Positions 22,001-61,511 of a stretch of 64,000 nt of DNA are shown here, piece by piece. Within the stretch, counting starts at the first letter, position 1, and the number at the start of each line of letters is the position of its first letter. The notes beneath the pieces were generated by a model. The model saw nothing but the letters and a program-made list of their open reading frames with translations, had not been told where the DNA came from and did not search any database. This DNA is from Nemertoderma westbladi (Eukaryota; Animalia; Xenacoelomorpha), in the NCBI GenBank assembly GCA_032718475.1, contig JAUCBJ010004643.1, forward strand, positions 1-64,000. The letters run 5' to 3'. The position numbers and the translations under genes were made by a program.

Positions 22001-22250
22001 TTACATTTCAACAGGTTGGTTCTTCTTTCTTCTCTGTCTTCTGTATCTTGTATTTGGATATTATCCGCATCTTATTTGGTGTCCTCAGCATTTAGACCCC
22101 CGTATTGACTCTCATAGGAGCACTGGTTCTACAACTCTAGATTTGAGACATGGGGGGGGGGGGGGGGGGGGGACTCGACGCAAATCCAAATTGACCCTTT
22201 TTTGGCGACTAATGGTCTCACCCAGTCGGCAGGTCGCTGCCTATCACAAG
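19099..22250 (-). mobile_element. Near full-length RTE-like non-LTR retrotransposon (APE + RT), frameshifted
   Basis: APE motifs at 21445-22011 (IATMNART, ICIQEHR, CYSPTN, AGDLNA) and QLDYIL; RT motifs QNGFR, FVDFKKAFDS, GVLQGDTLAP, DFADD (~19855), FQYLGS, RLRFSGHC; very short 3' UTR with TAG/TAA-type simple tail at 19099-19120. 5' end approximate; no TSD found. Confidence 0.9.
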
Positions 22251-28249: not shown

Positions 28250-30330
28250 GCATATAATTAATGCTGTGAACCCTCGGTAACTTCTTGATGTACAGTTCAG
28301 TATAAAACATCAGGAATTAGGATTCCCCTGCTCTAAGAGCCCAAGGGACTGGCATATAACAGTACGGCTACTGGCTCTACTGCTGCCTGGTATAAACTTA
28401 CTTTCACAGGTCTGATTTCAGGTTATTTCCACTCCCTTGATAGTTTATTTAAGGGGGGGGGTAGCGCATTTTCTGACCAAAAAGTCGAATTTTTGAAACA
28501 TATCCTATCTGATGCAGAATTTTATGCTGAATCCAAATATGGAAACCGTTTCCCTATATCTTGCTTACTTTTCGAGATATCTGGGATAGAAGAGACTGGC
28601 TCCGATATATCGCGATATCGGTAAGGCGATAAAGTTTGGGGTTTGCATTCAATTTCTGCAAATTTCTGTGCTCATTGGTGCTAATTGGATGTCTCCACGA
28701 GAAAGAGCACAAAATTTTAATTGAGAAGGTATTCTTTTATGATTATTGGACCTACTGATCAGTTTATAAGACAACTTCATGTCTACGGAATGAAGACGGG
28801 ACTCAAATAAGCGACTCTGTGGTCTTTGAGGGATGACACGGAATAGACTTATCGGTCATCAGAGATCTTCAAAATGTATAATCTCCAGTTCTAGTGGTCG
28901 TACGGAGTTCGTTTAGGGCTCATTCGAAAGCTCTTTTCTCAGAGACCACTTCTCAGAGACCATTTCTCAGTTACCATTTGGTTTGGCAAACTCTTGAAAG
29001 CTGCCTGAGCAATCATAACTTGTACAAAATTTGCAAGGCATATTTTACCCAAATTCATGTTATGTTGCTTTAGAACCATTTTGTCTTAAATCAAATGGTA
29101 ACTTTGTTCTCTAAGAAAAGAGCTTTCGAATGAGCCTAAAACGAACTTCGTACGACCACTAGAACTGGAGATTATACATTTTGAAGATCTCCGATGACCG
29201 ATAAGTCTATTCCGTGTAATCCCGCAAAGACCGCAGAGTCGCTTATTCGAGTCCCGTCTTCATTCCGGAGACTTGAAGTTGTCTTATAAACTGATCAGTA
29301 GGTCCAATAATCATAAAAAAATACTTTCTCAATTAAAATTTTGTGCTCTTTCTCGTGGAGACATCCAATTGGCACCAATGGGCACAGAAATTTGCAGAAA
29401 TTGAATGCAAACCCCAAACTTCATCGCCTTTACCGATATCGCGATATATCGGAGCCAGTATCTTCTATGCCAGATATCTCGAAAACTAAGCAAGATATGG
29501 GAAAACGGTTTCCATATTTGGATTCAGCATGAAATTCTGCATCAGATAGGATATGTTTCAAAAATTCGTCTTTTTGGTCAGAAAATGCGCTACCCCCCCC
29601 TTAATGTAGACCATACCTTGCCCATCTAAGATCCTGCAGTCTATGTAGCAGAAGTCAAGCATGACTAAACAGGCCATACAATGACTGACGGTGGACAGAC
29701 TTACTTTCTGGTGTCTGACTGGTGATAGACTTAGGTCTTTTCACAAATTGACCAACATCGGATGCTGTTTGATCTAGACTGCTGAGCAGTCTTTGTGAGT
29801 CATCAAATGTTTCTTATAATAAATCCAAATCATCAGCAACGTGAAGGCCCATAAAGTGTATTGGTGGTTTTCCTCTATTTTTACTACCACCGGCTGGTTG
29901 TATTTCCGTCTATACAGTATAATGTTCTTTAAGAGACATTCGCTGTATAATCCGGCCCAATAATGAAGAGAAAAGGAGCACGCGTGTCACCTTTATGGAC
30001 ATCTCACGATACTTCAACTGGGTCGGTTTCTCCATCTGATGTAGAGATAAATGTTGTTAGTGATTGATTCCAGCATTTACATCATCAGAAACCCCACAAG
30101 CCGGAAGTATCTTAAACATGCGTGGACGGGAGGCACAATCATAGGCCTTAAGGAATTTTACAAAGTTGACGGCTAGATGCCTCGTAGACAATTCTTCAAT
30201 GATCCGACGAAAGTGAAAAAATGGGCTCCAGGGTATTTTTACCTATGAAACCCATATTGGTTGTCACGCAGGAACCTTTCAACAGAATCCTTATGCGGTT
30301 CTACATTATTCTGTTGAAACCGCAACCTTA
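28250..30330 (-). pseudogene. Highly degenerate RTE-like LINE RT, split by the TTAA element
   Basis: Removing 28453-29604 restores GKVWSTLNKLSREWK*PEIRPVKVSLYQAAVEPV; further RT remnants (NQYGF, HLAVNFV, GDT, VADD) at 29830-30280. Confidence 0.75.
28453..29600. mobile_element. Palindromic non-autonomous DNA transposon with ~500-bp TIRs and TTAA TSD (Kolobok-like)
   Basis: TTAA (28449-28452) GGGG...tagcgcattttctgaccaaaaag ... ctttttggtcagaaaatgcgcta CCCC TTAA (29601-29604); arms stay complementary to ~28985/29088. RR...YY ends with TTAA fit Kolobok rather than piggyBac (CC...GG). Confidence 0.85.
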
Positions 30331-30619
30331 ACTGCAACCGAAATCAGGCAACAATACATTTTTAAATAATTAAAACGGATCAGTTTTATTAAGATTAACA
30401 GAAGGACCGATGAGCCATGAAACATCTGAAATGAACTCATTCATTTTATCCATGAACTACAGTACATATTTAACCAAAAATTAACTGAAGGAACTCCGGC
30501 AGAGCGGGCTTTGTGTTGTTATGGCAAACTCCCTAAGATAGCAGGTATTCTAACATTATGAAAATACCACCGATTTCGAATAGTGATAGTCGAATGAACA
30601 CAGATTTGGTATAAAAATA

Positions 30620-31320
30620 AATAAAAATGATAAAACAGAACAGAACAGAACAGAACTTAACAATACTATATTTAAGAATATAACGTGTTTAAATTTTAAC
30701 AAAAATAAAATAAAATAAACCACCATTGACAATCTTGACTTTCACAATCTTAACATTCACAATCTTAACATTCACAATAGCAACGTCCCAATATCATTTA
30801 TTGCATAAATAGACATAATAGTAAAGAACATCGTAATAGGAACAGTTCCTTTAAAAATAGAAAGATTCACCCAATGAAAGAGGTTTGTTAATATTTTCCC
30901 CTCTACTAAGAATTAAGTAGTACCAATTATTGTACCTTCAAATTGAAAACGTGAACTAAATCCATTGGTTCAGCCCATTGTCACTTTAAAGCAGTTACCA
31001 TCAAAAATCGCATAAAGAACTACAGTATATAAGGCTACTGTATTTCTATTAGTAGGCCCTACTACAGTATATAACATATTGCAAACGTTATCGTATAGTT
31101 TTACTTCAGGCCAAATACGTATATTATCCAGTGTGAAACCTCGGGTAAACCTCTCTGTGTGAAATTGGCTGTAATTCTCAAAACTTCCTATTGCAACACG
31201 AATAACAAATTTCACCGACCAGTTGAATACCGGTAATAGCTGAGATACTAAGCTTGATAAAATATTAAGACTGACTGACAATATAGATTTGTTGATGGCG
31301 ACGTTCATTACTAAACTGTA
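30620..31320 (-). pseudogene. Possible degenerate CR1/L2-like LINE 3' remnant
   Basis: Weak similarity of minus-strand translations (LNILSSLV; FSSRFQ..GTII) to LINE ORF2 C-termini; simple (CAGAA)n tail at ~30636-30656. Confidence 0.3.
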
Positions 31321-33625
31321 TGAAGGGTAACTGTGTGTAAACTGTAGAAAACTGTACGTGGTTTGCCCTTCATTACATATCTTAAGAACATGCTAGTACA
31401 CTATTGTAGGCCTATTTATATTTTCTATTGCGCCTCTAAAGATACAGTATCATACGCTTGTCTTCAAATGCCATTGTACAATAATTAATATCGTAAATAA
31501 ATACTCCAACTGGCACCTTAAACAAATTTTCTCTACGGCAATAATAGAACCTGGCAATAATATGAGCTTACCTGACACACAGCCTTCGAAACGTAATGAC
31601 TGCTAAAATATTCACTAAACTAAGAGAACTCTACTGAAATAATACAACGCAAATAATCGAACGCAAATATAAAAAAGAATTACACAAAAAATACGACATA
31701 TAAATAAAGTAACTCCCGTGATATTTCCCGACCTCTAACACTATCCCCCAGTCGCTGTTGTGAATAAATACCTCGCGTGTCCAGCCAGACAGAGTAATAC
31801 AGTAGGACTTAAACTCTACCGATAACACCACTGACTAGTTTAGTAGTTAGTCAACGCGTTATCCAGAGGTAGGTAATCCGATTCTGGAACGTAAGCGAAA
31901 GAATGTAGAGCGCACGCGTCGGCCAGGAGTCGAAGTCGGAGAAATATATACATAGTTCCGGTTCCCACGGTTACTGGTGTTGGGTAAGGCAGATGGGGTG
32001 GGGGGGGGGGGGGGGGATTGAGCAAATCCCTCCTCCACGAATAATATCTAGTTTAGTCTAATTAACTATGTTAATTATTAATTAATACAAAAAAGTTAAT
32101 AGTAGCAACAGCAGAATTGTAGTTTAATTTTTGGAAGCAATCAGCTGATTTTAGCGTCGACTTTCCCCAGGAGAGGGATAAATTTTGATATTGAAATTTG
32201 AATTTTGAAATAGCCCCACCCTACCTGGGTCGGAAGGGATAGTTGCAGGGACGGCAGAGTTTGATGTGGGGTTCCACGAGTGGTCAGTTGAGTTGCTCAG
32301 TTACTGGTAATTATATATTAACATCATGGGACTAGTGCCCTGAACGTCGCGAGTGAGTTTTACTCTTTACACACTGGGTCTCGACTGCCAACCAACCACC
32401 CTGACGTCAGTTACGTAATAGACAAAGCGGCGCGGCTGCAATTCAATAGTTCAAGTAATTAAATATAAACTTCTGTTCGTTTATAGACAGCACATACATT
32501 ACAGTACCCATCGCACACTATATAAAGCAGTTACATTGTCACATCAGTGTACATCAGCGTCTGTAATACGCGACACATAAATAGGCCATACTTGTCCCGA
32601 ATCGAATTCTATACAGTAACGAAACTACAGTACAGTATAATGTACATATAAATTGGTAATGTGCGTTATCGATATGTTTGTGTCAATAAAAAACACAGAC
32701 ACAGTGTATGTGTTATATTTCAATTAGCCTGAAAAGTAATGCACAAATACACAGTATATTTTTATTTCACTATTTTCTATAGTACAGTATTAGTGGTTAT
32801 GCAGTTATGGTAAATGGCAAATGAAGAGAACAAGCAAAACAACTCAATCGTACATTCTGTACAGTAGAATTCTACATGTATAGTAACGTGCATAATACAT
32901 ATTAAAAAGTACAAATTAAATATTTCACAAGTTGCTTTCAAAATTTAAAGTAAATTAAAAGGAATTAATAGTAATCAATTTATTAATTTCAGTAAAATGA
33001 TAATAAAATAATTGAAACACTTATGATTCGTTGATTCGTTATTTTTCTATTTCCTGTAACAGAATAATAATTATTTTTATATAATTAATGTAATGGGTTG
33101 CTAAAAAATTAAATATGGAAATCAAGATTAGGGAAGAAATGGATGGCCACGAATTTATAAAATAAATTCGTGCCAATCCATCAATATTGGTTAGCATTGC
33201 GTGTTATTGTTTAATTAATTGGAATGCGAATGTAATTATATTGCATATAAGTTATATAATATTGAATCATAATTGATATCTATCTCACACAAATATTTAA
33301 CATGATTACAATCAAATACATCTAGATATGAAATAATAACATTTTGTTATGATTTCACAATTATTGTTTTACTTTTCCATAGTGTAATAATCACTTACTG
33401 TTGTGTCGGGAATGCAGGGGGTGGGGGTATCAGTTCCAGATGTATGAAGGCCAGAGAGACAATACAATAGCCTGGAGGTGGGCGTTGTAGACTAAACTGA
33501 CCTACTGTATGTTTACTTAGTAATTATAAATATACTGTACAATATCGTACGTAAAAAAAATACAGAAATACAGTATGTTCCTATTTCGCGGTAATTCTAT
33601 CCACTGTATAAAGAATGAAAATAGA

Positions 33626-34801
33626 CTAGGATGATGCAGAAGTGCCGGTAGTAGTAGCGGATGTGGTACTCGTATTAGTCGAAGTGGTAGTAGAAGTAGT
33701 AGAGGTGGTGGTAGCCGAAGTGGCCGCAGCAATAGCCCGGGCTCTGGCAGTGGCAGAATCTGCCGGGCTCACAATCACGGTTCGTGGTTGGACCGCAATA
33801 ACAGGAGTAAAGGAAGGCGCAGCTGGCAAATACTGCATCGACAAGTTTGTCTGCTGGAGGGCAACGGATGGTGATATAGCAGCTATGTGCATATCGTGCA
33901 CAGATAATATAATATCATCTGTGGCAGCTTTGCCACACTTGTACCACCCCGAGATGGTGAAACCCCCCTTGCTCATTGATAGCCGTAGCCATTTTAGTTA
34001 TGTTCTCACGCAGGTTATTGCTATCGAACCGTGAGCGGGGCAGTGACAAAGCCTGACTTGACAAAAACAAATTTGTCAAACCCAAGCTCTGCCACAAATC
34101 ACCATTCTCGAATGGTATCAGATGATCGCTGGTTAGAGCAACCACCACAGCAGCCAATGCCCATCCTTCTGTAGACACCTTGTCGATGCAGCAGCACTGC
34201 ATCGTTGCCTTTCTCCTATCACAGAGAAATCCGGAGCAGGTAGGTCCCACTATCTGGGGGATGTCAAACCGCAGTTTCTCCCCCACCAGGCGAAAATCGT
34301 GGTACGCCATTTCTTCCTTGGAGGACATATCTAGAGGCAAAGAGTATAGACACTGACTTTGAACAATAGCAGGAAGTAGTGGGGAATGTGTATTTATAAT
34401 AGGATTATCCAAAGAGTGGTGGAGGTAATCTCCTGTAAATATAGGATCACAGATTTGGACCACCCCTCCAAGTTTTACCTCGCGATGGAGAAATAGATTG
34501 CGAGAATGGTTAGAATCGCGGGTAAAGATTGTAAAACATAGGTCTGAGTCTAGATCTCCAAGCACTACCTCCCGGTCAAAGGCTCCCTCTTTCTTGGCCT
34601 GCTTAGGTGGAGCAGACCCACCACCTCCGAACCCTGGCATTCGCCCCACACGTACAGTACGTAGGGGAGGAGGCGTTCTACCCGGGCAATCATAAGAATA
34701 ACTCCCATCAGTACCGTCTGATTAGGAACATACAGTTTCGATTGGTACCCTTGTACCACTTCTTGTATAGAAACCCGACGCCGATTGTTTATTCGATCCA
34801 T
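33626..34801 (-). pseudogene. Accessory gene divergent from the Rep-helicase; ~390 aa after repairing two frameshifts; Cys cluster and Thr/Ser/Ala tail
   Basis: ORFs 34565-34807, 33915-34649 and 33626-33976 join after removing a 5-bp insertion at 34653-34659 and one base in the C run at ~33963-33968 (gives ...PYVRVGRMPGF... and ...INEQGGFTISGWYK...). GC-richer island; motif CSGFLCDRRKATMQCCC. Confidence 0.7.
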
Positions 34802-37800
34802 CCTCACTACTGAATGAATTATTTAATCTTTAATTACTGCAGTAATTAATGGTTATATTACATTAATACCAAAATATTTAGTCACTTTAGAAAATAATTA
34901 AACGCATTAACTGCTTAAGTAATACATCATTTAATATACAGTATCTATCTAATTTAATATTTATTTGAATTATTTGAATGAACTGTTCATACTGTAGTCG
35001 TAAAATTTAATTACCGGTAGCTTACTATTTCTGATTTCAATCTAAAATCCATTACGCTTGTACTTACACTTGTTTATAACCATTCGGTTATTTAAAGAAT
35101 AAATATGAATATTATATGACGGTTGCCGTGGGATATTAAATTGAAACATATTTTCCACTACCGCAACAATAATATGTCAGTGGTATGTGTCACTACCAGC
35201 TAAGCCAAGGTGTACAGTATTGAATAACTAGTTCACTTTGAGATAGGAAAATACCTAACCGGTATTAGAAGACTACTACTCAAATAAATACCGGTAATTC
35301 ATTTTCTGGCTACTGTAGTTTTCATTATTTTCACTAAGAATTAACTTACCTCTAGCCAGTCAGGTATACTAAAGTTTAATTTAGTTCAGAAGCGTTTGCT
35401 GTTTGACTTAACTGGGTGTTTTAATAGGCCTACCCGCGGTATCGGAAACGCTTGACTAAACAGTTATGACTTAAAACTGAAAGTTTTATACCGGTACTAA
35501 ACATGACTGGTGAATACAGCTATAGCGGTACAAACAGTACAGTTGACTTTTAATACTGAAAGTATTTCTGGCAATCTGGTAGCGCTACTTGAATACCAGT
35601 ACCAGTAACTGATATACTGAAACAGGGGCCTGAACATTGATTAGTGATTACAGTAACATTTGTCAGGCTGTACAAACAGTGGAAATTATAATACTGGAAG
35701 TATTTATGGTTGGGATACTTAACCTCCATCTTACCAATGTCTGATAGTAGCATAACTGATATAAGTGGACTAACAGATGGTCAGATAGTTGATGACCGGT
35801 TCCTGGTAGGCCTATAGGACCAAGCCGGTGGCATTTACTACCGCAGTACTAAAAGTATTTTAGCCTGCCTGACAGTCTGGCCGTATGATTTTGGTAGCGC
35901 TTACCGGTAACGGTACCGGTCTGCCGGTGTAGTTGCTGCAATCAGTAGTTACTGTATGTACAGTATCTTTTACTTTGGCGCCCAAAAGGGTTGGATACGT
36001 TTTGTTTCTTAAATTTTAAGTGTTTTTAACCTGAATTATTATTTAAGATAGGCAATTAATGAGTTTCGCTATCGGTAACATCTGTTGTCATTGTTTTACT
36101 TAGTACTACAGTCAGACAGTATCACTTGGCCAATTATACCTGATGACAAGGGTTAACAAACAGACAAATTAATCAAACAAATTGATTGGTCATTGGTAAG
36201 AAGTATAGCGGTCGCGGACGATTTAAACGAATTCAGTATGTCGTAATGTCGATTAGCGTACTACGTCTCATCGCTTACTCTTCGTCTCTCCGCCCATAAC
36301 GATTACAGATACAGAAACAGATGATTATAGAAACAGATGATAGATTATTGTAACAAAGTATAACAAACAGGTTTGTTAATCACGTTTAGTTTGTTATTGT
36401 ACCTTATGCCAACTGGTACTGTCTTTCAACAATATCGTAGGTCTCCCATACAGTATCTTAATAATAATTACACACATGTGGGTGGAATCACATTGAAAAG
36501 TTGTTTTACTAAATATAAACTCATACTAGGCCTATAACTAATACCGAACTCGAACTGTAATTTAGGCCTATGTTGTACTTTATGTAATAAATTACAAAAT
36601 TTCAAGGGGTAAAAATATCGTGACAATAAATTATTAGATTTTATTAATTGATGTACGCAGTTCGCTATGATAAATGCTTGCGATACAGATAACATTAACC
36701 TGCATATTCGATGGTATAATACTGTATAAGCCTATGTATTATACTGTAGGTCGACATTTATTTCGTCACTTTCCATTTATTCTGTATACTGTATAAGTAC
36801 TGTATTGTGCAATATTTTCCTTTCAGCCTTAATAATCACACAGTGTTTATAAGGAGGTTGGACCTAACGTTGAACCTAACAAGGAGGTTGAACCTAACCT
36901 AAAGATTCTTCGGATGATTCTTCAACGAAATAAAAGTTTACCACCAACGTTGTGTAAATGGCCTGCTGATTTATTCTGCATAATAAGCTGATACCGTTAG
37001 TACAGTCTGACAGTAGTATATAAATAAATTATTATAACACGTAATATTATTATAGTTATCATCAACGCATAACAAACATTAGGTCTACCGGTAATTATCT
37101 TATCAATTAAAACTCAGTATCTATTAGCGACGGGAACAACATTTTCGCTGCGAATTACGTCGACTCAATTAGACGGAAATCAATTTATTTGAATACGCCA
37201 ATAATAAATTACAGTACGTACCGTAGGCCTACCTACTGTACCGGTAAAATTACTTTCATTATACAGTTGGTATATACTGCCTTTTAATCCTTAACTAGTT
37301 AATCTAATTAACCTTTTACTGTTCCACCATCGTTTAATCGTTTACATTAATTTTATTTACTTTTCAGATATATTCATATTTCCACGACGAACCTGTTATA
37401 CAGTAAGTCTGTTAAAGATAAAGTTTAAATTCTGCTTGGATCCAGTTAAGTCTGCTGTGGGACAAGCGTGGAACTTTACTGAATATATCGAATATTCAAC
37501 TGAATATAAATAAGTATACGAATTATTTAACTAAATATTGGAAATGTTTGTTTATTGTTAATGTTTATATGTTTATGTTTATTGTTACTGTTTAAAAGTT
37601 TGAATGTTTATGTTTATTGTTACTGTTTAAATGTTTATTTGTAAATGTAAATGTTTGTTTGTACTGTAGGATATTTACTTGGATCAATTGGGTTAATTTA
37701 GCCTTATTTGTTGTTAATTGCAATATAAAACATATATGTGTAGGCGTACTGTAAGTCTAATATTACATTAAACTATTAAATCTGAGTATCTGTGGTGAAG

Positions 37801-37825
37801 GGTCTAAATCCTTTCTAAAATCAAA

Positions 37826-40800
37826 ATGCCTTTCGTGTCCAAAAAACGTAAGCGACATATAAACAAATGTTCCAAATGCCAATGCATTATATCGAACGAA
37901 CGGTCGGGTTTATCCGAAGTTTGCGACCGCTGTGAATTGTCTGCTGTTGGTACGTCATCCATCAACAGTGAGATTCCTCTATCAAACGCCAACGATCCCC
38001 AAATTATCACTAGTAGCCAGATAGTACCACCTGAGGTACAGGTCATGTTACCAACAGACACTAACTCTGGTGAAAACGTAAGTACTAACCAGATTGAAAC
38101 ACACGACTCATATTGTAACTTGTACAATAATGGATTCGAGTCGGAATCCAGTTTAGAATACCCCGACAGTGACGAGGAGGAATCCATCCTCATGTCGTCC
38201 CAAAATGAGTCTCACACTTCAAGAACCCGTGTTAACCGACAAAGGTGCCAGGTATGCCGTCGAATTTGTAGAACAAATAGCTTATATTGCAATGCTCATC
38301 AAATGAGTTGGAGTAGACGCAACCCTGAAAGTAATACCAGTCGTAGTGCAGCGTCAGCTAACATAGAAAGCAGTGATAGTGACGTGAGTGGAATAGAAAA
38401 ATCATCAGCTGGTGATTCATCGTCATCATTTGATTTATCAGATGATGATGATATTGACGACTTTGCGTCGGATGGAGAGGTAATTCCAGGTGAATCACAA
38501 TTATCCAACCAGCCTCTAGAAAGGCGTAAATATTGTATAATATGTAACAATACACTCGTTTCACATAATTCTATGTATTGCACGTCACATAGAGCCATCC
38601 AAACAGTGCGCTCTATAACCACATTGAACACAAATGAGTCAGATATTGCGATGGTACAGCAACCATTAACATACAGCACAGAAATTTTAATGTGCCAGAA
38701 TTGTTTTCGTTGGGCTCTACCTTCCAATGATATAGACCTCGGGTATATACTCAGAAGTTCCGTGGCATTTACTAAACATTTCCGCCATATTCATAAACAT
38801 TCTGCGGACGCATATACAATATTATGTACATTATGCGCTGTATATTTGACCACAAAATATAATAAATCCTCCGCCCGCCAATGGCAGTTCATGTGGCCCT
38901 CTGTTCTCTGGCACCTCCTTTCCGTTAAAGGTATTGTTGATGATTTTCATCCGTGGAAATTCATCACAACATCCTTGCGGGAATCGTGGTTGCCTTCAGT
39001 GTCCCAAATGCACCACACATTAGTTGATGTCACCATAGAAACGCCGCCACCATATTTCAGAGATATTACCACTGATATCTCGGTGTTTCTAGATGACATC
39101 AAATCGATGAAACTCGTGAGACTCATAGCCGCACTTAATCGACACCCAAGTTGTTCGGTTAGATGTGTTTATGGTTGTCACGAGTTTCTAGAATACTCCA
39201 AACCAATATCATTGGCGGCGATATTAAATGAAGTCGTCCCCGACTTCACTGTGTACTGCTCTAAACATCTGAAATATATGCGTCCTGATTGGATGGAGAC
39301 AGTAAGTTTCCTCGAAATTTTCCAAGTTGCGCCGTCAGTTACGATATCCAACGAAGAGGGATTGTGTATCCGTGTGTGTAAACTACATAAGGGTGGCAAT
39401 ACCCTTCGCTACGTACACGTCCCACCAAACCCTGTTGTAGGGAGTTTCCCCTGCACAATTCCCGACCGCCTTGGCTCTGCAGTCTTTGTTCCGAGAACAT
39501 TTCGGACAGCCAAAGCCGGATACGCTTCCCACACCTACCAGATGTGGGAGGAACAGGGAGCGTATTCCGGTATGACCAGCTTCACTCTCTCGACTGATCG
39601 ACGTTTTGATGTCACAGACGAGAGAGTGGGGCAGTTAGAATCATTATTGCTCCAAACTCGCCCAGATTGTCTGGCCCTACTTTACAATCTTGTAAATAAC
39701 GGTCAGTTGTCTGAGCAGACAATGGAGCAATTTATTAATGTTCTTAAACCTTTGGATTTACAGGGACTGTTCTCCGCCCTATCCAAAGGTACTGCAGTAC
39801 CTCTATCAAGTGCTTTAGCACTACGGGACCAGTTAGGGACTGTGACTGTTCCTAATCTGGAACATATTCAGGAAAATGATCCGGAACATATTGGATCACT
39901 TCCTGATGATCAGATTGACCAGGTTTTAGAGCAAGTTTCTCTGGGGAACGTAGTTTGCGACCGCGTTCAGTCACCAGTTTTGTTGGCTGACCAGGGTGAT
40001 GCCGTTGTTGAACCACTTAACAACCATCCAAATATACCCGAACCTGTAATAGGTACTGTAGTTGGAAATCCGGTACAGTTCAACTCGTCCCAAATGAGAT
40101 TGTGGCCGAAAATTATCCCAAACGTACAAAATTGCGACGGCTACGGCGCTATGCCCTTAGTACCTATCATAAAAGATACTAGCAACTTGGTACTGTATCT
40201 TTGTTCTTCCATTTCACTTAACGTGGATGCAGTGTGGAAGTCATTACAACTTTCAGTCAATGACGGAAACTTCAAATGGTGTGGCTATCTGCTACGCTAT
40301 TTGTCTAAGTATATTACACCCTTCACTGCGTCAAAAAATAGTAATAGAAATATACCATTCATTAAACGACCAACTGATTTACAAATTAATGAAGTTTTAC
40401 GTAACATCCCATCAACAGCAGCGCCAGTGCAGCAGCAAGTTGCTACTATCTTCTCCAACTTGAACAAAATAGAAAATATTCGGATTGAACATAGATCCAT
40501 TATTTCTAATGAAAATGTGTCTGAATTTGTTCAGAATCTCCCACCATCTTCAGAAGTGAATGTCGTATTTATATCGACAGTAGAAAGGCCATCACCGGCC
40601 TTTTCCACTCCATTTGTCCCGGCAAAAATTATTTCCGTAAACAATATCAATACCTGGCAATTGCGTTTTCTTGCCACTTCGTTCTCCACTGCCGCCATTA
40701 TATACCAGTCATATCCTTTCGGGGTTAATGGCTGGTATATAGAGTCTAACAAGACTCCAACAAAGTCGCCAGTGCTGCCGACTGACATACTGCGGAAATG

Positions 40801-43800
40801 GTCTCTCGCAGTCTATACAACTATATATACTGTAGACGGCTCCCTTTTGAGGGACCAAACCTTACAATCAATGGGTGGCCAATCTAAAGTCAAATGTGCC
40901 ACACACCAGCTTCCCTTTATTAGGGAACTGCGCAATAATATATTCAAATGTGGAGAAACATTAGAAAATGGGTCGAGGTGCAAAAGGGTGGCTGCTTGGA
41001 GGTGTCCAGCATTTACTGCGCAACCCTGCAAGCAATGCCCAGCTGCACTTTGCAGGAAGCACTGGCAGTCATGTTCTTCAAATCGGGGTAGTTTCATTGT
41101 TCCTCCACCGGAAGATGAGGCCATCCTGACTGTAGAGCATGATGAGCCATTTAGTGACGATGACGTCATTGATGACGTATATTGTGACGTGGCCCCGGAA
41201 GTAGAGGTCATCTCTCAAGAACCTCTAGATTACACAGACGATCTAGATTTTGCAATGAACGCCGGTGTATTTTCTGATGACACTGGCCATGACCCGGCAG
41301 GTGCTGTTCCTCAGACTGACAGTGGTCTGTCGAGCCTTTCTTTTAATGTTGAAAGAAAGATGGTCCCTGGACATGTTATTCTTAACCACGGGATGGGACT
41401 CTTACAACGAAGGGGACATGTGGTAGACACGCCAGCATCGTTTAAGAGATGGCTGGAAAATCTCGTAGCCACTACACCAACAAAGTCCGTATCATTAATG
41501 TACCCCGAGTCAATTCTTTTCCCTTCCATTTTTTGGCAATTAATGGAGGATGGTTCAATTCCGGGTGCCATACCTCATCCCCTTTGGGGAAATTCCAGCG
41601 CCCGGAAAATGTTGGGTTTTGAAACTCTTAGTAAACAATTGCAAGTGCGGGTTTTAAACCAAGACCTTTTAACCTCCACCGACCCTACTGCTGATAAACT
41701 GCTACTTGCAGTTTATTTTCGATGCTTTATTAAATATTTTATTAAGAAATACGGACACCAGATTTGTTTCCAACCGTGGTTGGGAAGACATACTAAATTT
41801 TGCTGGAACCCTGCCAAAAGGAAATCAGACAGGGTTATTAAACCTGGATGTTACTGACAGTAACACCCGGGTCATTGAATTGGCTAGTTGCCTAGCCGAG
41901 AGGGGTGAGCCTACATATTTTTATACTCACTCCTTCTCCATGGACAGCCACTACGGTGTGAAGCCTATATTTCACCAGGTAGAATGTATTGTCGAGAAAC
42001 ACCGCCAACAATACATCTTAGATAACGGACTTCCCTGTGTTGGGGAAACTTACACTTGTAAGATGGCAGAATCGATCCGCCAGTCAGCCATGATCCAGCT
42101 CCTCCGGTCCGTCCAAAGAGCTGGATCTTATCATATGAATTACATTAGATTTTCAGCTGAGCAGCCTCTTGGTGAGGTTGACGATATGTGGTACACCTGG
42201 GAGTTCCAGGACACCAAAGGGAATGTACCACATATACATTCTCTAATCATAGTAAAGAATGCCGACAAAGAGTCTGATGAGGTATTTCTCCGCATCAGAG
42301 CCTCCGAACAGACATTCTTTACTAAGGATGAGATTGAGGAGTTCCTTGCTGAGGGTCTCATTCGAGACAGAGACCACCTGGATGAGATTTACCGCAATCT
42401 GGTACGTCTCATCCACGATTGTGAGAAATCGGGGTTTACCTGCCATAAGAAGGTAGACTCTTCTGGACAGCGTATTTGCCGCAAACACGTGAACCCGCCA
42501 TCGCATGGACATTATTATGAAGAGTTACCAAACAATCATTCCAAGGAAGCGTTACAGGTCTACCAACGACGGTATGGCCACAATCAATGAATACGGCACC
42601 TTCCAATTGCATGCCCCAATCCGTGCTGGGAAACATTTCTACGCCTCAGAGTATACCTATCCAATATTCTCGCCCTGTAACAACAGATTATTTGCGGCCA
42701 CACAGTGCAACGACAACCTATTGGTGTGCGATGGTTGCACCAGTTCACGTTATTGCGTCAAATACGCTGCCGGTGCTGAGGAGAAACGGGACGTACGATT
42801 TACCGCAGGCCAAGCATCGGCCAATGTAGTTCACGCACAGGAGGATGAGCTGAAGAACATTAAAATTTCAGGTCCCGCCATTCTGCGCAAGGAGGAATTG
42901 GAGAAACAAGCTAGTAAACAAAAGACCGTGTTTGCTCGGCTTGTTGGTGCTCCTGAGTTGGGGTGGCACATTTTGCACCTCCCCGTGACTGTCCCGTCGT
43001 CAGAATTTATCCATATTCCAACCACCTCCATAGAAAATAGGGCTGGGGTTGTTATGCCTTGGAAGAACCAAAATCCAAAGCATCCAGCCCATACAGAATG
43101 CGAACGTGTTCGCTCACAACTGCTGTATCTACCATCCCATCGTCATTTCACATCAAACCAAACTATGACGATGGTAGATCAACAGGATTCCATCATATCA
43201 GTTGATCTAATGACGGTGTTTTGTCTGCGGCCACCAGAACTCTTGTTTGTTTTACGACCAAAGTTATATTTAACTTGGTTTGCCCAAATTAAATTGCCAT
43301 CCAAAAAATCTGAAATTAAATCTATACACGAAAGGAAATTAAGAACAAATATACGGGAGTCAATGTGGGTAGATGGTACCAACCATATAGTACAACTACG
43401 ACCATCTGCGGTAAATGAATTAAAATCATATTGTACAAATTATAATTGTAAACATGCCAACGATTCAGAACGCGTTACTGATAATATGCTCTCCATAATA
43501 CATCTAATAGAATTAAACGACAAGCAGGTTACTAATAATTACATATACCAAAATTGTATATTCAAAGACAAAATTCCAATTGCTTGCGACCGAACCATCA
43601 CACCAATGAACCCTGTTAAATTCTTAGTCCACTTATTGTTGAGTATGGGGGAGTTCATAACTGAAATAGACCTGTTCCTCGTTCCAACAATGAGGGACTC
43701 GTTTATTAGAGCGGGACTTTTACCCGCTGCTGGTCCTTACACGCAGGAGAATGTAGACCAAATCCTCACCAAATACCAGTGGGAGCAACTGCGACACGTT

Positions 43801-46065
43801 CCAGGTGGGGTGAGAATGTCCGATAAGTATAATATTGTGGCAGCGGATCATGTGCTGCAAAACCTCATACTCAACAATGAGGTGACTACTTATGACACAC
43901 CTACTGTACTCCTAAGTACACTGCAAGAGGAAAATACCATAAAAATTGCAGGAATGCTGCATGATCTCAAACTGGCCACAATAAGAGCATTAAAGTTCGA
44001 CGTAGCCATCGTCAACATGCCGTCATTAGATGAACTGATGGCGGCCACTTTAGAACGGCCTCTTCCATGGAAACCCCAATTGGGAATGGCCCCCGGACAA
44101 TCCCAGGAATCCATGGAGGAACAGAAATATGCCATAGAGTGCATAACTCGGGCAGTTGATAGACTTCTTTCGGGGCACCACAGTTATTCAAAATTCCCCG
44201 TGATCCTTGGACCACCAGGCACTGGGAAAACTTTAGTGATGTGCTATGGTGCGGTTTATGCCATCGCAGGTGGCGCTAATATTATATTCACATCATTGGC
44301 CGCCGAGCGAGCAGTTAAATTTGGTGGAATACACATCCATCAATTACTGCCAATTCCTGTGATTGACCACGAGGGTGGCATCACTAATGTTACAGTTAAC
44401 TCGGAACAAACGGTACGAAAATTACATAACCACAAGGAGAAGTTGGCCTATCTGCGAAATTTACATGTACTTTTCGTAGAAGAAATAGGTACAGTGAGCG
44501 CGGAGATGTTCGCTGTACTGGATCAGGTTCTCCGCCATGTTCGTGAGAATGACTCTCCATTGGGCGGTGTACTAATGATTGCCACTGGCGATACAAAACA
44601 GCTGCCCCCAGTAAAAGGTCATCCAATATGGGTGTCAACCCATATGTTTACTACCTTCAACATCATTTTATTGAACCATTTTGTCCGTTCCGCCCTTGAC
44701 CCCGACCTTATTCGGGTGAACACACTTATCAGGAAATTGCACCTTTCCGAGGATGAGATTATAGAGTACACCTCTATTCTCTCTAGGAAGTGCAATTTCG
44801 TACGAACTTGGGACGCGGTTGACTCCTCTACCTTGAGGGTTTTTGGTAAGCGAAAGGCCGAACGGCAGAGCGTTAAACATATGTTGCATGTCGTTGGAAG
44901 CAGTGGAAAGGAGTGCATGGCAGTCACTGCAGAAGATGAAGAGTCAGTAACTGGTCAATCTGCATGGAAGTCTGCTTCAGCTGCTACAAGGCTGCTACAG
45001 GTCCTCAATAATCGAACCGATGAGCAAGTACTTACACTATTCTGTGGTGCTGTCATGCGGGTCACACGAAATGACCTCTCCCGGAAAGGCTGCTTCCAAG
45101 GCCAACTATGTGTAGTAACCTCTCTGCCTACTCAACCACTCGGGCCATTTAAAGTAATGGTGGCTCCACCCGGTCAAAGGACGGTTCCAGACGACCTAGA
45201 AGGTAGTGGTTGGAAGGAATATACAATACGTAAATTCCAGTCATTGTCTTATTCCGTAGGTCGTGGAATTAGTGGCCGTCGAACACAATACCCGTTGCGA
45301 CATTTTATAGCGGCCACTATCCATCGTATCTTAGTAGATACAATATTAAAATTAGCCACCGCTATTAGTGAGGTTGAGAGCGAGTACCACCTCTGGCTCC
45401 GCTCTCAATTAATCGTCTTGATTAGTAGACTAGAACTTCTAATTAACCTGACCTTCGTAGGAAACAAGGACGACATTCTCCTTGCTACATCTACTTTACT
45501 ACGTCAGGTAAGTCAGTACGACGTGTACATTGAACATGTGTTGTCTGTTGTGGCAACCAATGCACAACGACTACCTTCCGACCTCTACCCCGTAGTCGAC
45601 ATGAGTCTCCACCCCTTCCGGCCAGGTAATGTGACCCTCCCACAAACAACTTCCGGTTACGTATATTGCCTGATCTCTAGACCCTGTCCCAACGTCACTT
45701 ATATAGGGGAGTCACAGAGTCTGGTATCTGCCCTAAAGAACCACAACCAAGGGGGTACATTTGGCACTAGTGATGATTTTACATCCAACATTTCACTAAG
45801 ACCATGGGCAGTGCTCGCCTTCTTCACTGGGTTCGACTATCAACTTGGAACCAGTTACCAACGGCAACAGGTCATAGCTGGTTGGAAACTTCGGATAAAC
45901 GAGCTGTACGATTGGACCAATGCTCCCCCAAAGGAAGTATTGGTCGCAGCTCACGACACGTTGCAAATCCACAAACCCTTCCATCCAGACTTAAATCTCG
46001 TAGTTTGTGGAAGCCTTAAGGATCCTCCTGATTTTTTAAAGAGACCTACCGATAAACAAAACTAA
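37826..46065 (+). mobile_element. Helitron-like Rep-helicase gene (Zn fingers + HUH Rep + Pif1-like SF1 helicase + C-terminal GIY-YIG), ~2,740 aa, two frameshifts (~41690, ~42570)
   Basis: Three overlapping ORFs (1343, 294, 1186 aa). Rep motif I PTYFYTHS (~41910), II EFQDTKGNVPHIHSLI (~42200), III YCVKY (42751); helicase GPPGTGKT (44209), FVEEIG, GDTKQLPPV, QYPLR..AATIH, QLIVLISR; GYVYCL...TYIGES...HNQG...RPWAVLAFFTGF from 45655. Confidence 0.85.
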
Positions 46066-49160: not shown

Positions 49161-51590
49161 CTAGTTTTTTAAACTTTTGTATAGTCTTTTTCTCCACAGC
49201 ATGAGCCACTTTACTAGGAGGGCTGTAGGGCAGTAGGAGGGCAATACAATTGTATCAGAAGGGTTTGGGTTGTGGTCGGTGTATCCGCCGGTCGAGGTAC
49301 CCGGTTGATCAATATCCATAGGAGGTCCACTTCTCTCCTGTGGTGGAATTGCGATATCGACATATTTATCGGAGGACCCAAGGGATCGAGGGTGCATAAC
49401 CTTTAAGGCCCGTCTCAGGACAGCAGCTTGTACTGGTCCTGCTTTAGTCATTTGTGCGACTGCCATGGGTGGACCGTGAGTAGTGAGGAATTTTCGGGGT
49501 TTAACAGTTCTTTCTAATTCCCATTCCCTCTCCTTGTACTCATAAGGACATCTGTGGAATTTTTGCAATTCAGGGTGCTCATTTATAAATGTCTCACCAT
49601 ATTCAAGGTCTCGGTTAAAAAACCGATCAAGTTAGAAGAATCAAGATTATTTGGATTAATATTTCTCAAATATTTTCTGACATATTTGGTGGAAATACAC
49701 TCACCAACGCGTTTTATTAATTCGTAGTTGGGAACACGAGTTTTCTGTTCGACTTGGGGAAAGAGATAGGGGTGAAATGCATACACTCCTTCATAAGCTA
49801 GTCCTGGATAATATCAATGGCGCAACTCACAGTGAAGATCTGCGGTAGCTTCCCAAGCTCGTATGTATCGAAGTACAATCTACTCGTCTATGCTTTCGAT
49901 GTCTTGGCTAAAAGGGCAATCCCAACTAGTGTGTCCTTTTAGTTGGCAGTAATGACACTGTGTCATAAACTGGGGGCAGACAGCGAAGATATGCTTATTA
50001 TTAACGCGACAATAAGCACAATAAATCTCCAAGGACAGTTCTCTTACAGCTTGTACCTGCTGAGGTAATTTACGTTTGTCTAAAACATCGTCAGTTTCCT
50101 TTCTGATCTTTTGACGGATCGCTTCAAGTGCATTCCGTACTACACTTTCTTCCACTTCAGTAACAAATTGGATTGGTGCCAAACCAGACCGATTATACAG
50201 GTTGAATGGGGTAAGCATATGTCCTCGTCCCAATCCGGCTGGCTATATAGGGCGAATATCCAAAGAACCAACATCTGAGACACCACCGATTAGTTGTTCT
50301 GGTAAAACCAGATCTTTGAACAAAGAATATAACTCAGGAGGGTCAGTTATACTTTTAGGAGCGAGAGTTTGTGGTCGCACCGAGGGGTGAGGGGGTCTGA
50401 TGGAGTATTCTGGAACTCTGATCATAGGTTTACTCAAGGATCATTTGAGTTGAGCGATCATGGATTGCACGTCGAACAGATGTCGCTCAAAACTCCCGTA
50501 AGTATAGCGCGTGAAACTATGTTTAGTGCAATGTCTCCGCGGATGCTTATAGTGTTCCATTTTTTGATTGGGCATTTGTCACAATAATACCAAAGACGCA
50601 CATCTTGTAGGTGAAATGCTGGCAACCTTTCTCCCATTTTGCAGTATTCTTCCATCTGTTCAAAGCTGTCCAGTACAGCAGGTAGCGGTCGATTCGCTAT
50701 AAGGTACATCATAGTAAATTATAATCATTTAAGTTCGAACATAGGGCATACCTTGAGGATATTGAGTTTCCAAGTTCTGTTGACTAGCAATATTGGGATA
50801 AGTTTCTCGCAGGAACTCCAAATATTCATAAAAGTTCTTGCATTTGTCGGGCTCTTCCACATCTTCTCTTTCGAGACGATTTCTAATAGAGGTTTCATGT
50901 TCGATCTACAGCTTGTCATTCCGACTCCATTGTGCATGAAATTTGAATAGAATCATCTCCGTTTCTGTATCCAAATCATCAGTATCATGTAAATCGATAG
51001 GATGACCAGTAGTTAGGAAATCCATATACGTATCATTTTGATGCGTATAGCGCGAGGTGAATTTTCTATAATCGAATTCGGGCTTAAGCTGTTCCTCTGT
51101 CATCGGTGGTTTGATGTAACATCCATCATCGGCTGTTATAGGTTGACTAGTGTCACCACTCAACAAACTATCGGGAAGCGCTTGTAGAGGTTGCATATAT
51201 TTATCCTTAATACTAAGGTCTTCCTCTATCAATTCAGTCATAATATGTGTGGGAGTTTATCGATAATAATACAGGCTAGCGAGCGTCGCTGCCTATATCA
51301 GGCTTCCAACTGGCTCCCGGACAGCCTGAGATCCTCAGCGCTGATGTACTGTCGTCACTGTGCCTCTTGCCAATGTAGTAGCTATACAACGTCAACAATA
51401 ACCAGTGCGAGTCACTCCACTGTCCCTCCCAAGGGCTCCAAGATACCAGAGAGAGATAATTATCGCAGGTAAGGGATGACTTTCTCAATTGCGGCTCGCT
51501 ACTGTAAACACACTTTAGTAGTAACATTCACCTATAAATACCCAAATTCGACTTTCATGCCACAATTCGCACAATTTGGGGCCATTTGTC
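49161..51590 (-). pseudogene. Decayed ~2.4-kb ORF with CCHC zinc knuckles, downstream of the BEL/Pao pol on the same strand
   Basis: Chain of abutting minus-strand ORF fragments; CAYCRVNNKHIFAVC and CHYCQLKGHTSWDC at ~49920-50025; further CxxC pairs (CDKC, CSTC, CANC). Confidence 0.6.
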
Positions 51591-52739: not shown

Positions 52740-55700
52740 GTTTATTGGATCTGGGAGGTAGTCGTCGGTAGAGTGTCTTGTTTACCGTAGTTCCTGGATA
52801 ACTCTCGGTCTCACTCTAATAGACATAGACGACCAACTGGGCGATTGAGTTGTTGCATCTCAAAGACTATTCCTTTTTTCTTATAATTATGCCTCATCAC
52901 TATGAGTTCTACCGATTGCACTAAACCGTCATCGGATATATGGGTCTTGATGATACGACCTATCTGCCACCTCTTGCGGGGAAGATCTGACTCGACTATT
53001 TGACCATGTCTCCGGAGCTGATATTTTCTTGCTGCTCAAACCATTTAGTTCTGAGTTGCAGCGTCGGAAGATAGTATTTCTTGAAGTGATCTGCGAAATG
53101 GTAGGATAACAACGGCATAAGTTGCCAAGTCTGTTTGCTGTATTCATCCCCATCATTAATATCTGAAGCGGAAAGCATGGCCACCGGCTTCTTGAGTAGA
53201 AAATGCGCGGGTGTTAATGCTTCAAGGGAATCTGGACTCGAGGAGACTGGCATAAGCGGTCTCTCATTCACTTAGGCGGCGATTTCTTCCAACAGCATTT
53301 GCAGGAGTTCATCAGTGAGATACGCGCGGCAGGGCACTACAAAGTCAAATGCAGTCTTGACACTGCGTATAAGTCTCTCCCAACTTCCTACCCACCAAGG
53401 AGCATCTTTGGCGTTGAAGGCCCAGCTGGATGCTGTCACTTTCAGCTGATTGTCTGCCTGTCTTTGGTTCCAGTCGTTGACATAAGCTTTAATCTCGTTG
53501 TTGGCTCCGATGAAGTTTGTACCTTCCGATCGCATGGTGTTGCTAATCCCAAAACGAGCGATTTGTCGGCGCAAACTGAGTGTGAAACTATTGGTAAATA
53601 AATCATTCACCATTGTCCAGATGAATCGCTCTACAAGTCATACAAACAAATATAATGCACCATTGCTTGACTATAGTTCTAGCGCGATACACTTCAATAG
53701 GGCCCAATAAATCCACACCGGTATTAGTAAAGGGTGGTTCATAACAGCTTACTCTTTCCCTAGGTAATTCTGCCTCTCGCTGGGTTAAAGGCCTACAAAA
53801 TGCTTTCCTACAGGGTATACAGTTCCTAAGAACTTGATTTAGCGCTTTCGTGGATTATTAAAATAATAGCGGGCTTTAACTTTGCTAAGAACTCGTTCCC
53901 TACCGGCATGATAAAGCCTACTGTGTACATCTACAATCATCTTGATTTGTATCTCAAGATTTCTAACTAGTATGGGAAAGAGAGGGGTGCATTGGTTAAT
54001 CTCCCTCCAACACATATTAATCCATCAGATATCATGCTAGAAAATGAATCCTTTAAGCGCATCTGCGGATTTCTCAACAACAGGAAATACTTCTCAGGAT
54101 CCTCATGATATTGTAGAAGTCTCAGTAGTTGCTTGTAGGTATCATCATGCTCCTGGTAAGTGATATTGTCAGCAAGAAACTTGTTAGATAGCCAATAAGT
54201 GGGAAGGTCTTTGATGGCATTGACCTCTTTGACTACTCCTGGGATGGCGTCACCGGTTGTCGTAGGCTTGGAATAGTGATGATGGAAACACAGTTTTAAA
54301 TAGGTTATGGCTTTACAAAGCCTATTCCAAGAACTATAATATGCCATTGCTCTCTGAATAATAGGAGAGATTCCTTCAGAGACATCAGGTATACCAGTCT
54401 TCCAATCTCGCTCTCGAGTACTAACAACCGCCTTACCTGGGACTCGCTTAGGATCTTTAGATATTTCCTCGTTATGATCCTTATTGGAGTCATCGGCCGA
54501 ATGCAGTACCAACAGATCTATCGCCGGTTTGAACAGTTTGGATTTACCTGTCCGAGTTTTTGGTTTAACGGTCTCCGCTTCCTTGGCTTGTCTGATCTCA
54601 GCAGCAGTAAGATGGGGGGGGGGGGGGGCATTCCTCCTTTTTACTTAGGATGTCAGGGCCACCTAACCAATCTGGCTATCTGTCAGTTCCTTAGGTGTAG
54701 CTCCTATGGAGGCAATGTCATCAGCTGGATTAATAGTCCCAGGGCAATGTCTCCATTGGTCTATATTCGTGCAACTAAGTATAACATCTACTTGGTTAGT
54801 GACAAAGGCGCTGAACTTGCAGACTTCGTTAGTAAGATATTCTAGAACGAGTAATGCATCTGTCCAATCTATCGTAAGAGCTAAGAGCTAAGAACTCTAT
54901 CGTAAGAGTTAGGTTCCACAGCCTCTTGGGTAAAGAATCGCAGTGCGTGTTAATCGCTCAGTTTAGAATTATATCGCTCCACTACCTCGTTTAGCTCGTC
55001 ATCCTCATAGACCAACAACTCTTTGTTCTGTTGTATTAAATTACGCAGTTCGGTTTGTTTTGTCCAAGTTTCATTCTCGGTGAGGGGTTCGATCGTATTG
55101 TCCTCATCGTACAACACTTGAATTTTGTCGTTATCTGATTAGCATGGAGTTTCCTCAGCTGAAATAACCTCATTGTTCACAGTTTCCACACTCTCACATA
55201 CCTGATTAATATGTTCGTTTTTCATCCTTTCTCGGAGAGTGCGTCCGGATGGTCCCGTGAAGTACCAACCCACCCTAGTTCGTCCCGCGTAGGTTTGTAG
55301 AGGCTGTGGTCGAGTAGGTCGCTTTTTCAGTGTCTCTAGCGCCTCATGCGCATTCTATCTGAGTAGCATCTGGACTCCAGGATAGTCAGTCTTGAATCTG
55401 GGGACTCTATACCGCTGGGCAAAGGTGTTCTCGTCCCAGTTATAAGGTTCTACCTGACTGGTGGCAAAGTTCTTAATAGCTACCATTTTAATAGACCTAA
55501 GATTGTCGTTACCAGATTTATCCTGTGGCTAGATAGTGATCCCACATAGAAGTCCGTCAATACTGTAGATTTCCATACCTGCATGATCCTGGAAAGGTTA
55601 AGCTTAATTTGAAATTTCTCCTGGCCTGCAAATATGTCCTCGGCTAAAACTTTGTTGATAAAGGTGCCTGTACTACCTGAATCTAGGAGGGCTTTAATAA

Positions 55701-60994: not shown

Positions 60995-61020
60995 CCTAAG
61001 AGAAGCATAATAAAAACTAT
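60995..61020 (-). promoter_or_regulatory. Candidate 3' splice acceptor 1 nt upstream of the ABAT copy 2 start codon
   Basis: Minus strand reads tttttattatgcttctcttAG|G ATG (pyrimidine tract + TAG/G). Confidence 0.45.
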
Positions 61021-61511
61021 TAATTCAAAGTGAATCATTTATACAAATGAATAAAGATTAAAAAATCCTTATAGCAGTAGAAGTTCAACTGCTGCTCTAA
61101 TAATCGATTCCAATGTATTCTACAGTATGTGACATACAAATCCAGACCAGCCCATTCAACACCTACTGTAGGTCTACCCTGCCTTTGACTTATTACCTAC
61201 GCATGTATGTAATTGAAAGAAAAGCAACGTATTTTCATAAAATATTTAGACATTTTATGTTCAAAGACACATCCATGGTGGATGTTCTAGGACAGTGTGT
61301 TTATACCCGCTGTCATATCGTCAGTCAGCATCGTAATTCGTTGATTTTCTGGTATTTAGGCTTACTGGTACTATCAGTCATTAGACATACCACTTCTCGA
61401 TAGAGGCGGCACGGTAGGCCTACTAACTGGAAGCCAAGGTGGGATCATCTACCCAGTACCGGTACTATATGGTATAATGTACGGCGAGCAATGGGGTACC
61501 TACTAAAATAT

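Follow-up and report, generated by a model that had tools for sequence, protein, structure and literature searches.

A frame-broken Rep-helicase gene with a GIY-YIG domain in Nemertoderma westbladi, probably from a distinct clade of Helitron-type transposons

The RepHel gene and its intact homologs

The window analysed here, a stretch of 64,000 nucleotides from Nemertoderma westbladi (contig JAUCBJ010004643.1), contains a gene in which an HUH Rep domain is followed by a Pif1-like helicase and a terminal GIY-YIG domain (hereafter, RepHel), together with a divergently oriented partner gene. This raises the question of whether the locus belongs to a described group of Helitrons or to a separate two-gene lineage of rolling-circle elements, as a preliminary description of the window had proposed. 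Our analysis suggests that the gene is a frame-broken copy of what is likely a Helitron-type transposon, probably derived from a distinct Helitron clade.

RepHel is distributed over three overlapping open reading frames (ORFs) on the forward strand: ORF1 (37808-41857; 1349 amino acids (aa) from stop to stop, with the first ATG at 37826), ORF2 (41673-42590; 305 aa) and ORF3 (42493-46065; 1190 aa). The intact homolog P0001 (2697 aa) spans these ORFs in order by tblastn, its residues 356-1307, 1292-1554 and 1570-2692 matching in three different frames. Therefore, the ORFs represent one gene of ~2,740 codons with two breaks, which bears out the earlier proposal of a single protein joined by two frameshifts. 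The succession of Rep motifs, superfamily 1 (SF1) helicase motifs and a terminal GIY-YIG domain was also located as previously described: Rep motifs I, II (EFQDTKGNVPHIH) and III (with two tyrosines) are at 41916, 42201 and 42751, Walker A and Walker B (FVEEIG) at 44209 and 44473, and GIY and YIG at 45655 and 45697. Motif I deviates from the family pattern, and the helicase retains 36 of the 37 family-conserved columns. PIF1 (E 2e-10) was the sole Pfam match of the window pieces that passed the curated cut-off; Helitron_like_N (E 0.004) and GIY-YIG (E 0.027) were both below it. The features of the gene are as follows (window coordinates, strand in parentheses).

37826..46065 (+): RepHel-GIY-YIG gene, in three reading frames, colinear with 29 intact homologs (2,090-2,891 aa)
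41690..41705 (+), approximate: first RepHel frame break, a frame switch relative to the homologs
42568..42572 (+): second RepHel frame break, inside the Rep domain, a frame switch relative to the homologs
41916..42765 (+): HUH Rep domain with motifs I, II and two-tyrosine III, alignable over its full length with the Reps of HLE1 and HLE2
44209..45429 (+): Pif1-like SF1B helicase, from Walker A to motif VI, with matches to Pfam PIF1 and to Pif1 structures in the PDB
45655..45885 (+): SLX1-like GIY-YIG domain (family profile against SLX1 structures, E 1e-9)

Position of the family among Helitrons

Helitron references were gathered by scanning genome and viral datasets for motifs, and their HLE1 and HLE2 labels were assigned here from motifs and Pfam domains; the HLE2 references in the trees are mostly Helentron-like. 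The trees contain no sequences from Repbase, HelenSM92 or the Paramecium clade, and their HLE2 sampling did not knowingly reach subgroups a, c or d. The Rep tree comprised 46 rows and 240 columns under a mixture model, 13 of 59 rows having been omitted for reasons of time, gaps or redundancy. The helicase tree (41 rows, 372 columns) comprised 10 of 25 family rows and 18 of 34 outgroups, the latter being phages and giant viruses, with cellular eukaryotic Pif1 excluded.

In the Rep tree, the family was recovered at 100/100, HLE1 at 96/81 and HLE2 at 98/94. In the helicase tree, the family was again recovered at 100/100, on a long stem, and the sampled HLE2 formed a group without it (100/100). 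The family does not nest within HLE1, the two being separate clades and at most sisters in the helicase tree under LG+G4, nor within HLE2, whose nine sampled members form a clade that excludes it. The family is one clade outside the sampled HLE1 and HLE2. The proposal of a distinct two-gene lineage is supported both by this single clade in the two trees and by the presence of the partner in 14 distinct elements (see below). The preliminary description had named nesting of the Rep within a described family with GIY-YIG as grounds for refutation. The trees answer this in part: the Rep lies outside the sampled HLE2, and HelenSM92 (labelled HLE2, with GIY-YIG) is not among the sequences compared.

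The family would work in a Helitron-like manner, and its Reps were joined with those of HLE1 and HLE2 at 99/100, apart from 14 prokaryotic Reps; it is therefore a branch of the Helitron superfamily and not a new class. Two marks of the superfamily are present, namely a two-tyrosine HUH Rep in one protein with a Pif1-like SF1B helicase that follows it, and dispersed copies, seen as near-identical full-length members in many large contigs and as diverged paralogs in the host.

Several characters separate the family from the references. According to Pfam, DUF6570 is found in none of nine family proteins (nor in the window pieces) versus 5 of 10 HLE2 references, and the AP (apurinic/apyrimidinic) endonuclease in none of nine versus 6 of 10; in eight of the nine family proteins, GIY-YIG occupies the place of the latter. 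The distance from motif II to Walker A is 636-785 aa in the family and 466-572 aa in the references, and no family Rep exceeds 40 bits against the Pfam Helitron profile, compared with 78-198 for the references. Motif II had been described as unlike the canonical form; the family form has at least three residues ahead of GN. The EE Walker B (FVEEIG), which had also been put forward as a distinguishing mark, is not family-wide, because many members have DE. Profile comparisons point towards HLE2: a two-way HLE1/HLE2 call placed 16 of the 21 Reps and 17 of the 25 helicases of the family in HLE2, and one family profile aligned over 985 columns with an HLE2 protein versus 422 with an HLE1 protein.

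The GIY-YIG nuclease

GIY-YIG is a trait of the clade. When loci were picked by Rep motif II alone, all 45 evaluable loci, representing 29 distinct elements (88% nucleotide clustering), had GIY-YIG after the helicase. Loci were considered evaluable when they extended at least 700 bases past the helicase end, for which 45 of 80 qualified; the other 35 were too short, non-family (two) or measured from a duplicate motif (three). The core of the domain was present in 78 of 91 full-length protein matches, and eight of nine intact homologs passed the Pfam GIY-YIG cut-off. SLX1 is the nearest solved structure in profile searches. Within a single element group, five related pairs gave dN/dS values of 0.09-0.17, which indicates purifying selection; values for distant pairs were saturated. 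A conserved Arg and a conserved Glu are catalytic in GIY-YIG enzymes; 79 of 83 homologs retain the two residues, which the window copy has lost. The nuclease looks accessory, and dispensable in some sub-lineages, because P0012, in which the domain is degenerate, nonetheless has three near-identical full-length members.

One duplication concerns motif II, by which these loci were picked: in L030, a 161-base motif II duplicate lies 6.5 kb upstream of the real one (oriented positions 3369-3529 and 9916-10076; 84% identical).

The partner gene

The partner gene and the spacer between the two genes are placed as follows.

33626..34801 (-): partner gene of ~390 codons with two frame breaks, supported by 33% identity to P0260, a family profile and the fold of P0260
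34802..37825 (no strand): AT-rich spacer between the two divergent genes

The ATG of the partner is at 34801, 3,025 bp from that of RepHel, and its frame breaks are near 34652 and 33963. The second gene of the preliminary description is real; its start lies further up than that of the listed ORF, and its frame is broken twice. P0260 is its one direct homolog. When the window partner piece or P0260 was used as a tblastn query, 13 of 80 loci were matched, and an iterated profile built from those loci found the partner in 18 of 80 loci, corresponding to 14 distinct elements, and in 12 of the 16 elements with long flanks. The same profile had no match among 236 control loci, which total 1.39 Mb; with the window and P0260 left out of its construction, it still recovered the window partner at E 8e-20. 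The linkage of the two genes, which the preliminary description had marked for checking, is therefore recurrent, and the head-to-head gene and its 3 kb spacing were as described; the head-to-head order itself is not conserved, being found in one of the 14 elements. In the others, the partner is downstream and convergent (eight), downstream on the same strand (four) or upstream on the same strand (one).

No Pfam family, RPA included, matched the partner. A model of P0260 (18-row alignment, pLDDT 77) had as its best structural matches TEBP-alpha (Z 9.3, root mean square deviation (rmsd) 3.0, 101 residues aligned), Teb1 (Z 9.1), MCM10 (Z 9.0) and RPA70 (Z 8.1). Foldseek returned a chain of a telomerase-CST entry and archaeal RPA (E ~3e-4), and Atlas matches for the fold were POT1, MEIOB and CTC1. 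The OB fold thus resembles the RPA/POT1/CST type at Z ~9, with no single family standing out, and the partner is predicted from this model to encode an OB-fold single-strand DNA-binding protein.

The N-terminal region

Three features precede the Rep domain in ORF1.

38660..39847 (+): conserved N-terminal domain particular to the family, in which nine Cys/His positions are conserved and likely form zinc sites (alignment of 36 homologs; confident model)
40124..40828 (+): fold resembling ubiquitin-specific protease (USP), model residues 489-723 (VIA-align, Foldseek)
40895..41062 (+): Cys/His cluster with eight conserved positions, likely zinc fingers (alignment of 36 homologs)

No Pfam family matched ORF1. 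The region was modelled over ORF1 residues 285-1100 from a 52-row alignment (pLDDT 78), and USP deubiquitinases matched residues 773-1007 in VIA-align (38 chains at Z >=8; USP12 at Z 11.9, rmsd 3.7, 203 residues aligned). Seventeen conserved Cys/His positions flank this fold. The catalytic Cys is not conserved, any column of the Cys-box having Cys in at most 6 of 36 homologs; therefore, the modelled USP-like domain is likely a pseudo-enzyme. No fold match was found for the zinc-rich N-terminal domain, which was never queried alone and was barely probed by the fold search. The loci L003, L010, L033 and L064 share a break position in the N-terminal region, at a place where the window has an acidic linker; for L003 and L033, GT-AG intron signals were seen at the break.

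Size and distribution of the family

Among 2,712 candidate proteins of 2,084-5,000 aa, 29 homologs were found, which are 26-34% identical over most of ORF3. A search of representatives at 50% identity gave 342 matches at E <=1e-30 and 949 at E 1e-10, of which the best 150 were inspected. The two best Atlas clusters consist of PIF1 plus GIY-YIG proteins; diatoms are commonest among the four members of the first that carry a phylum assignment, which is no more than a lead. With a degenerate pattern modelled on the motif II of the family, 81 metagenome stretches were hit; 80 were examined, and 78 of them encode family proteins. Many metagenome contigs with the family are 10-17 kb long, some with extra large ORFs. 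Three scans of viral contigs, including one with the motif II pattern, found no family member, and phage and plasmid records yielded only Pif1/Dda-like helicases at 22-35% identity. One cluster at 90% identity has at least eight near-full-length members among the 15 of its 28 members that were listed, the contigs ranging from 19 kb to 1.55 Mb, and six members compared with the representative were 92.5-99.96% identical. The protein had been described as intronless; some relatives carry spliceosomal introns in RepHel (L003 and L033).

The RepHel frame also switches at one shared place in L048 (2586-2611), L002, L005, L036, L050, L052 and L067, which are 89-99% identical; this may reflect an intron or a programmed shift.

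Comparison with known systems

HELIANO (PMC11417382) reports GIY-YIG in one family of Sphagnum magellanicum, HelenSM92, which is labelled HLE2 and is about 16-18.6 kb long. Its terminal inverted repeats are short, it shows TT insertion, and GIY-YIG is reported in it as one captured domain. The statement in the preliminary description that the endonuclease of Helentrons is an AP endonuclease and not GIY-YIG thus needs the qualification that GIY-YIG is in print for one Helitron-like family. HelenSM92, known here from its description alone, shares with our family a RepHel element with GIY-YIG, and it may belong to this clade, because the two-way classifier labels most family members HLE2. The same study reports four unclassified clusters, the accessory domains RPA, Ssb-like OB, UCH and OTU, and the occurrence of UCH and OB-type domains in HLE2 elements.

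HLE2/Helentron elements in general share with the family the two-tyrosine Rep-Pif1-like helicase fusion, an endonuclease after the helicase, the best profile similarity and, in some members, a weak OTU-like domain. The family differs from them, apart from the domain and motif II spacing characters given above, by a longer Rep-helicase linker, the in-frame USP-like fold and its own clade in both trees. The canonical Helitrons of HLE1 (Helraiser, PDB 7LCC) share the Rep motifs and the helicase but are ~1,500 aa long and lack a C-terminal nuclease; plant, cnidarian and fish HLE1 members carry RPA (PMC6431247), whereas the family's partner has no Pfam RPA match. The family profile scored Helraiser (64 bits) below yeast Pif1 (77) and bacterial Pif1 (89).

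A third Helitron clade, outside HLE1 and HLE2, has been described in Paramecium (PMC13085455). It shares with our family the position outside both groups, a very long transposase (3,052-3,592 aa) and, as judged by eye, an EE Walker B. However, the E-F-Q-x-R-G spacing of Hel01 is the usual one, and its transposase stops ~85 codons past helicase motif VI (by eye, one copy), so that there is no room for the GIY-YIG of this family; from this copy and the copy ends, neither the motif II form nor the C-terminus is shared. GIY is not mentioned in the available portions of the text and supplements of that study. Replitrons are likewise eukaryotic HUH transposons but have one catalytic tyrosine and no helicase (PMC10288648), a combination that the family does not show. 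The available parts of PMC6431247, PMC3627910, PMC10288648 and PMC8788227 added no GIY-YIG Helitron. We found no publication describing this clade in a search that did not extend to Repbase, Dfam and most subscription journals, and the clade appears to be barely described in print.

State of the copy in the window

The locus has four frame breaks, two in each gene. Three sequencing runs (X1, X2 and X3; two samples, two studies) contain window DNA and were compared with it up to position 46,950. Two X2 contigs stay in frame at the second RepHel break, and both partner breaks are missing from the contigs in each of the three runs. One break lies in a homopolymer, and several differences from the runs, among the 12 of 149 rows listed in the comparison of insertions and deletions (indels), are multi-base indels; therefore, sequencing error alone is no better an explanation than a decayed copy or haplotype. 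N. westbladi probably has a more intact copy or haplotype, and the window copy is probably no longer autonomous. The copy number in this host is low, and diverged paralog contigs are present in its runs; contigs ~87-88% identical to parts of the gene occur in both host samples. Read depth across 33.4-43.0 kb is ~1.4-2 times that across 44.2-46.4 kb, the spacer being raised like the genes, and drops past ~46,390 in X1 and X3 but not in X2. Missing coverage is no evidence of an element end, and the drop is not taken as the right end.

Neither a GC-rich terminal hairpin nor a convincing terminal repeat was found in 29.7-37.8 kb or 46.1-49.2 kb, and the contig ends of related loci showed no coincidence or shared structure. 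Long-range inverted matches were considered as element ends and rejected, being AT-rich and out of register. The terminal features of Helitrons were thus not located in this copy: a terminal hairpin and insertion without target-site duplication in general, a 5' TC, a 3' hairpin plus CTRR and an AT target in HLE1, and short asymmetric terminal inverted repeats with a TT target in HLE2/Helentrons.

Proposed mechanism and alternative explanations

The architecture is probably that of a rolling-circle transposon in which one large protein nicks and unwinds the DNA, helped by a linked gene for a predicted single-strand DNA-binding protein and by an SLX1-like nuclease domain. By analogy with Helitron biology (PMC13085455, PMC10288648), the two-tyrosine Rep would nick one element end and stay covalently attached, the Pif1-like helicase would then peel off one strand, and a second nick would give a circle, the strand being joined into a new site. 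The OB-fold partner would probably coat the displaced strand, like the RPA genes beside other Helitrons. The USP-like fold may rather plausibly serve as a binding scaffold and not as a protease. GIY-YIG might finish the event by cutting flaps or branched DNA, whether at the target or at the donor, a role for and against which we see about equal grounds.

A number of observations weigh against this reading. The element ends, hairpin, terminal repeats and target site were not found, and transposition is for that reason not demonstrated. The sister group of the family conflicts between the trees, the Rep pointing toward HLE2 (81/44) and the helicase, under LG+G4, toward HLE1 (96/84), and a grouping of the family with HLE2 is not rejected (approximately unbiased test, p-AU 0.32). 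The multi-copy members may stem from several assemblies of one host, two of the contigs being equal in size. Thirteen of the 91 full-length matches are without the GIY-YIG core, ending early or degenerate as in P0012, and no partner was seen in four of the 16 elements with long flanks. Furthermore, the modelled protein is P0260 and not the window partner, its structural matches fall mostly within the first OB domain, and the sole close partner pair gives a weak dN/dS of 0.72.

Beyond the locus itself, the family may constitute an unnamed major Helitron-like clade of animals and algae with its own kit (RepHel with an SLX1-like nuclease, a pseudo-USP scaffold and an OB-fold protein), which would open or resolve the target itself and would have been missed or mislabelled by HLE1/HLE2 profiles; we advance this tentatively, as somewhat short of an even prospect. 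The same mechanism could instead operate in a deep HLE2 subgroup already touched in print, as HelenSM92 or as one of the unclassified HELIANO clusters. The labelling and size of HelenSM92, its GIY-YIG, the two-way profile calls, the longer profile alignment with HLE2 and the UCH and OB-type domains reported in HLE2 are all consistent with such a subgroup, as is the mostly Helentron-like composition of the references. We nevertheless consider it rather unlikely, as the sampled HLE2 form their own clade in both trees, and DUF6570, the AP endonuclease, the form of motif II and its spacing to the helicase all differ.

Two further explanations were considered. An element that brings along an initiator, a helicase and a predicted single-strand binding protein, and that is found on many metagenome contigs of 10-17 kb, some with extra large ORFs, would suit a virus- or plasmid-like replicon that exists as a free circle and integrates only sometimes. 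This is very improbable, because the viral scans were negative, terminal overlap was seen in none of 80 loci (certain of which are not whole contigs), L003 and L033 have spliceosomal introns, copies sit in megabase contigs, and no capsid family scored above the cut-off among 47 neighbour and partner ORFs, most of which matched no family at all. Still less credible is a host gene pair domesticated for DNA repair or telomere upkeep: the low copy number in this host, the well-preserved helicase motifs and the cellular roles of SLX1-like, Pif1-like and POT1/RPA-like parts agree with it, but the four frame breaks of this copy, the diverged paralogs in the same host, the repeat-rich setting, the variable position of the partner and the many near-identical copies in relatives do not.

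Helitrons are currently sorted into two clades and a recent one from Paramecium. A further clade of hundreds of diverse members would change both classification and annotation tools, and it would bear on how the peeled-off strand is protected and integration is finished. The same place after the helicase is occupied by the AP endonuclease in Helentrons and by GIY-YIG in this clade, and the RPA of other Helitrons is paralleled here by a different OB-fold gene. These parallels suggest that the same two helper functions were recruited more than once. As natural copies that are intact exist, these roles are open to direct assay.

Neighbouring genes and surroundings

Neighbours of related elements include an Ulp1 protease (L016:1030-2550), a UCH (L014:8752-10740), a MYND finger (L019:11624-12667) and a 3'-5' exonuclease (L024:8634-9314). 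ORFs of 1,050-1,465 aa without a Pfam match lie beside RepHel in L043 (12253-16647), L066 and L072, in L023 (6315-9470) and L065, and in L008 (463-4125), and certain of these large ORFs are common to related elements. Canonical Helitron/Helentron genes were found in prokaryote and giant-virus bins (L105, L117, L125, L136, L189 and others), most likely as host contamination.

The surroundings of the locus in the window are repeat-rich and animal-like. A satellite array of 16 kb (3044-19100) consists of ~236 copies of a 69-bp unit with 92% matches, and two intronless class III aminotransferase ORFs (955-2472 and, on the minus strand, 59471-61024) share 77% DNA identity over 1.2 kb. Remnants of long interspersed nuclear elements, with endonuclease and reverse transcriptase, occupy 19123-22071 (-) and 62151-63998 (+), and a fragment at 29958-30300 resembles the second. 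Broken ORFs similar to those of long terminal repeat retrotransposons, one with a DUF5641 match, lie at 52932-58023 (-), and a foldback element at 28440-29614 has arms of ~510 bases that are 93-95% complementary, with 156 bases between them. A short, very high-copy repeat at 32154-32190 (bin depth 2,100-3,000 versus 50-250 in adjacent bins, with many loose ends) may mark where a non-autonomous element ends. X1 and X3 contigs link position 30386 to 33289, omitting 2.9 kb beside the 3' end of the partner. On the other side of RepHel, 49161-51256 (-) contains three short ORFs without a Pfam match, one of which has Cys/His knuckle-like motifs.

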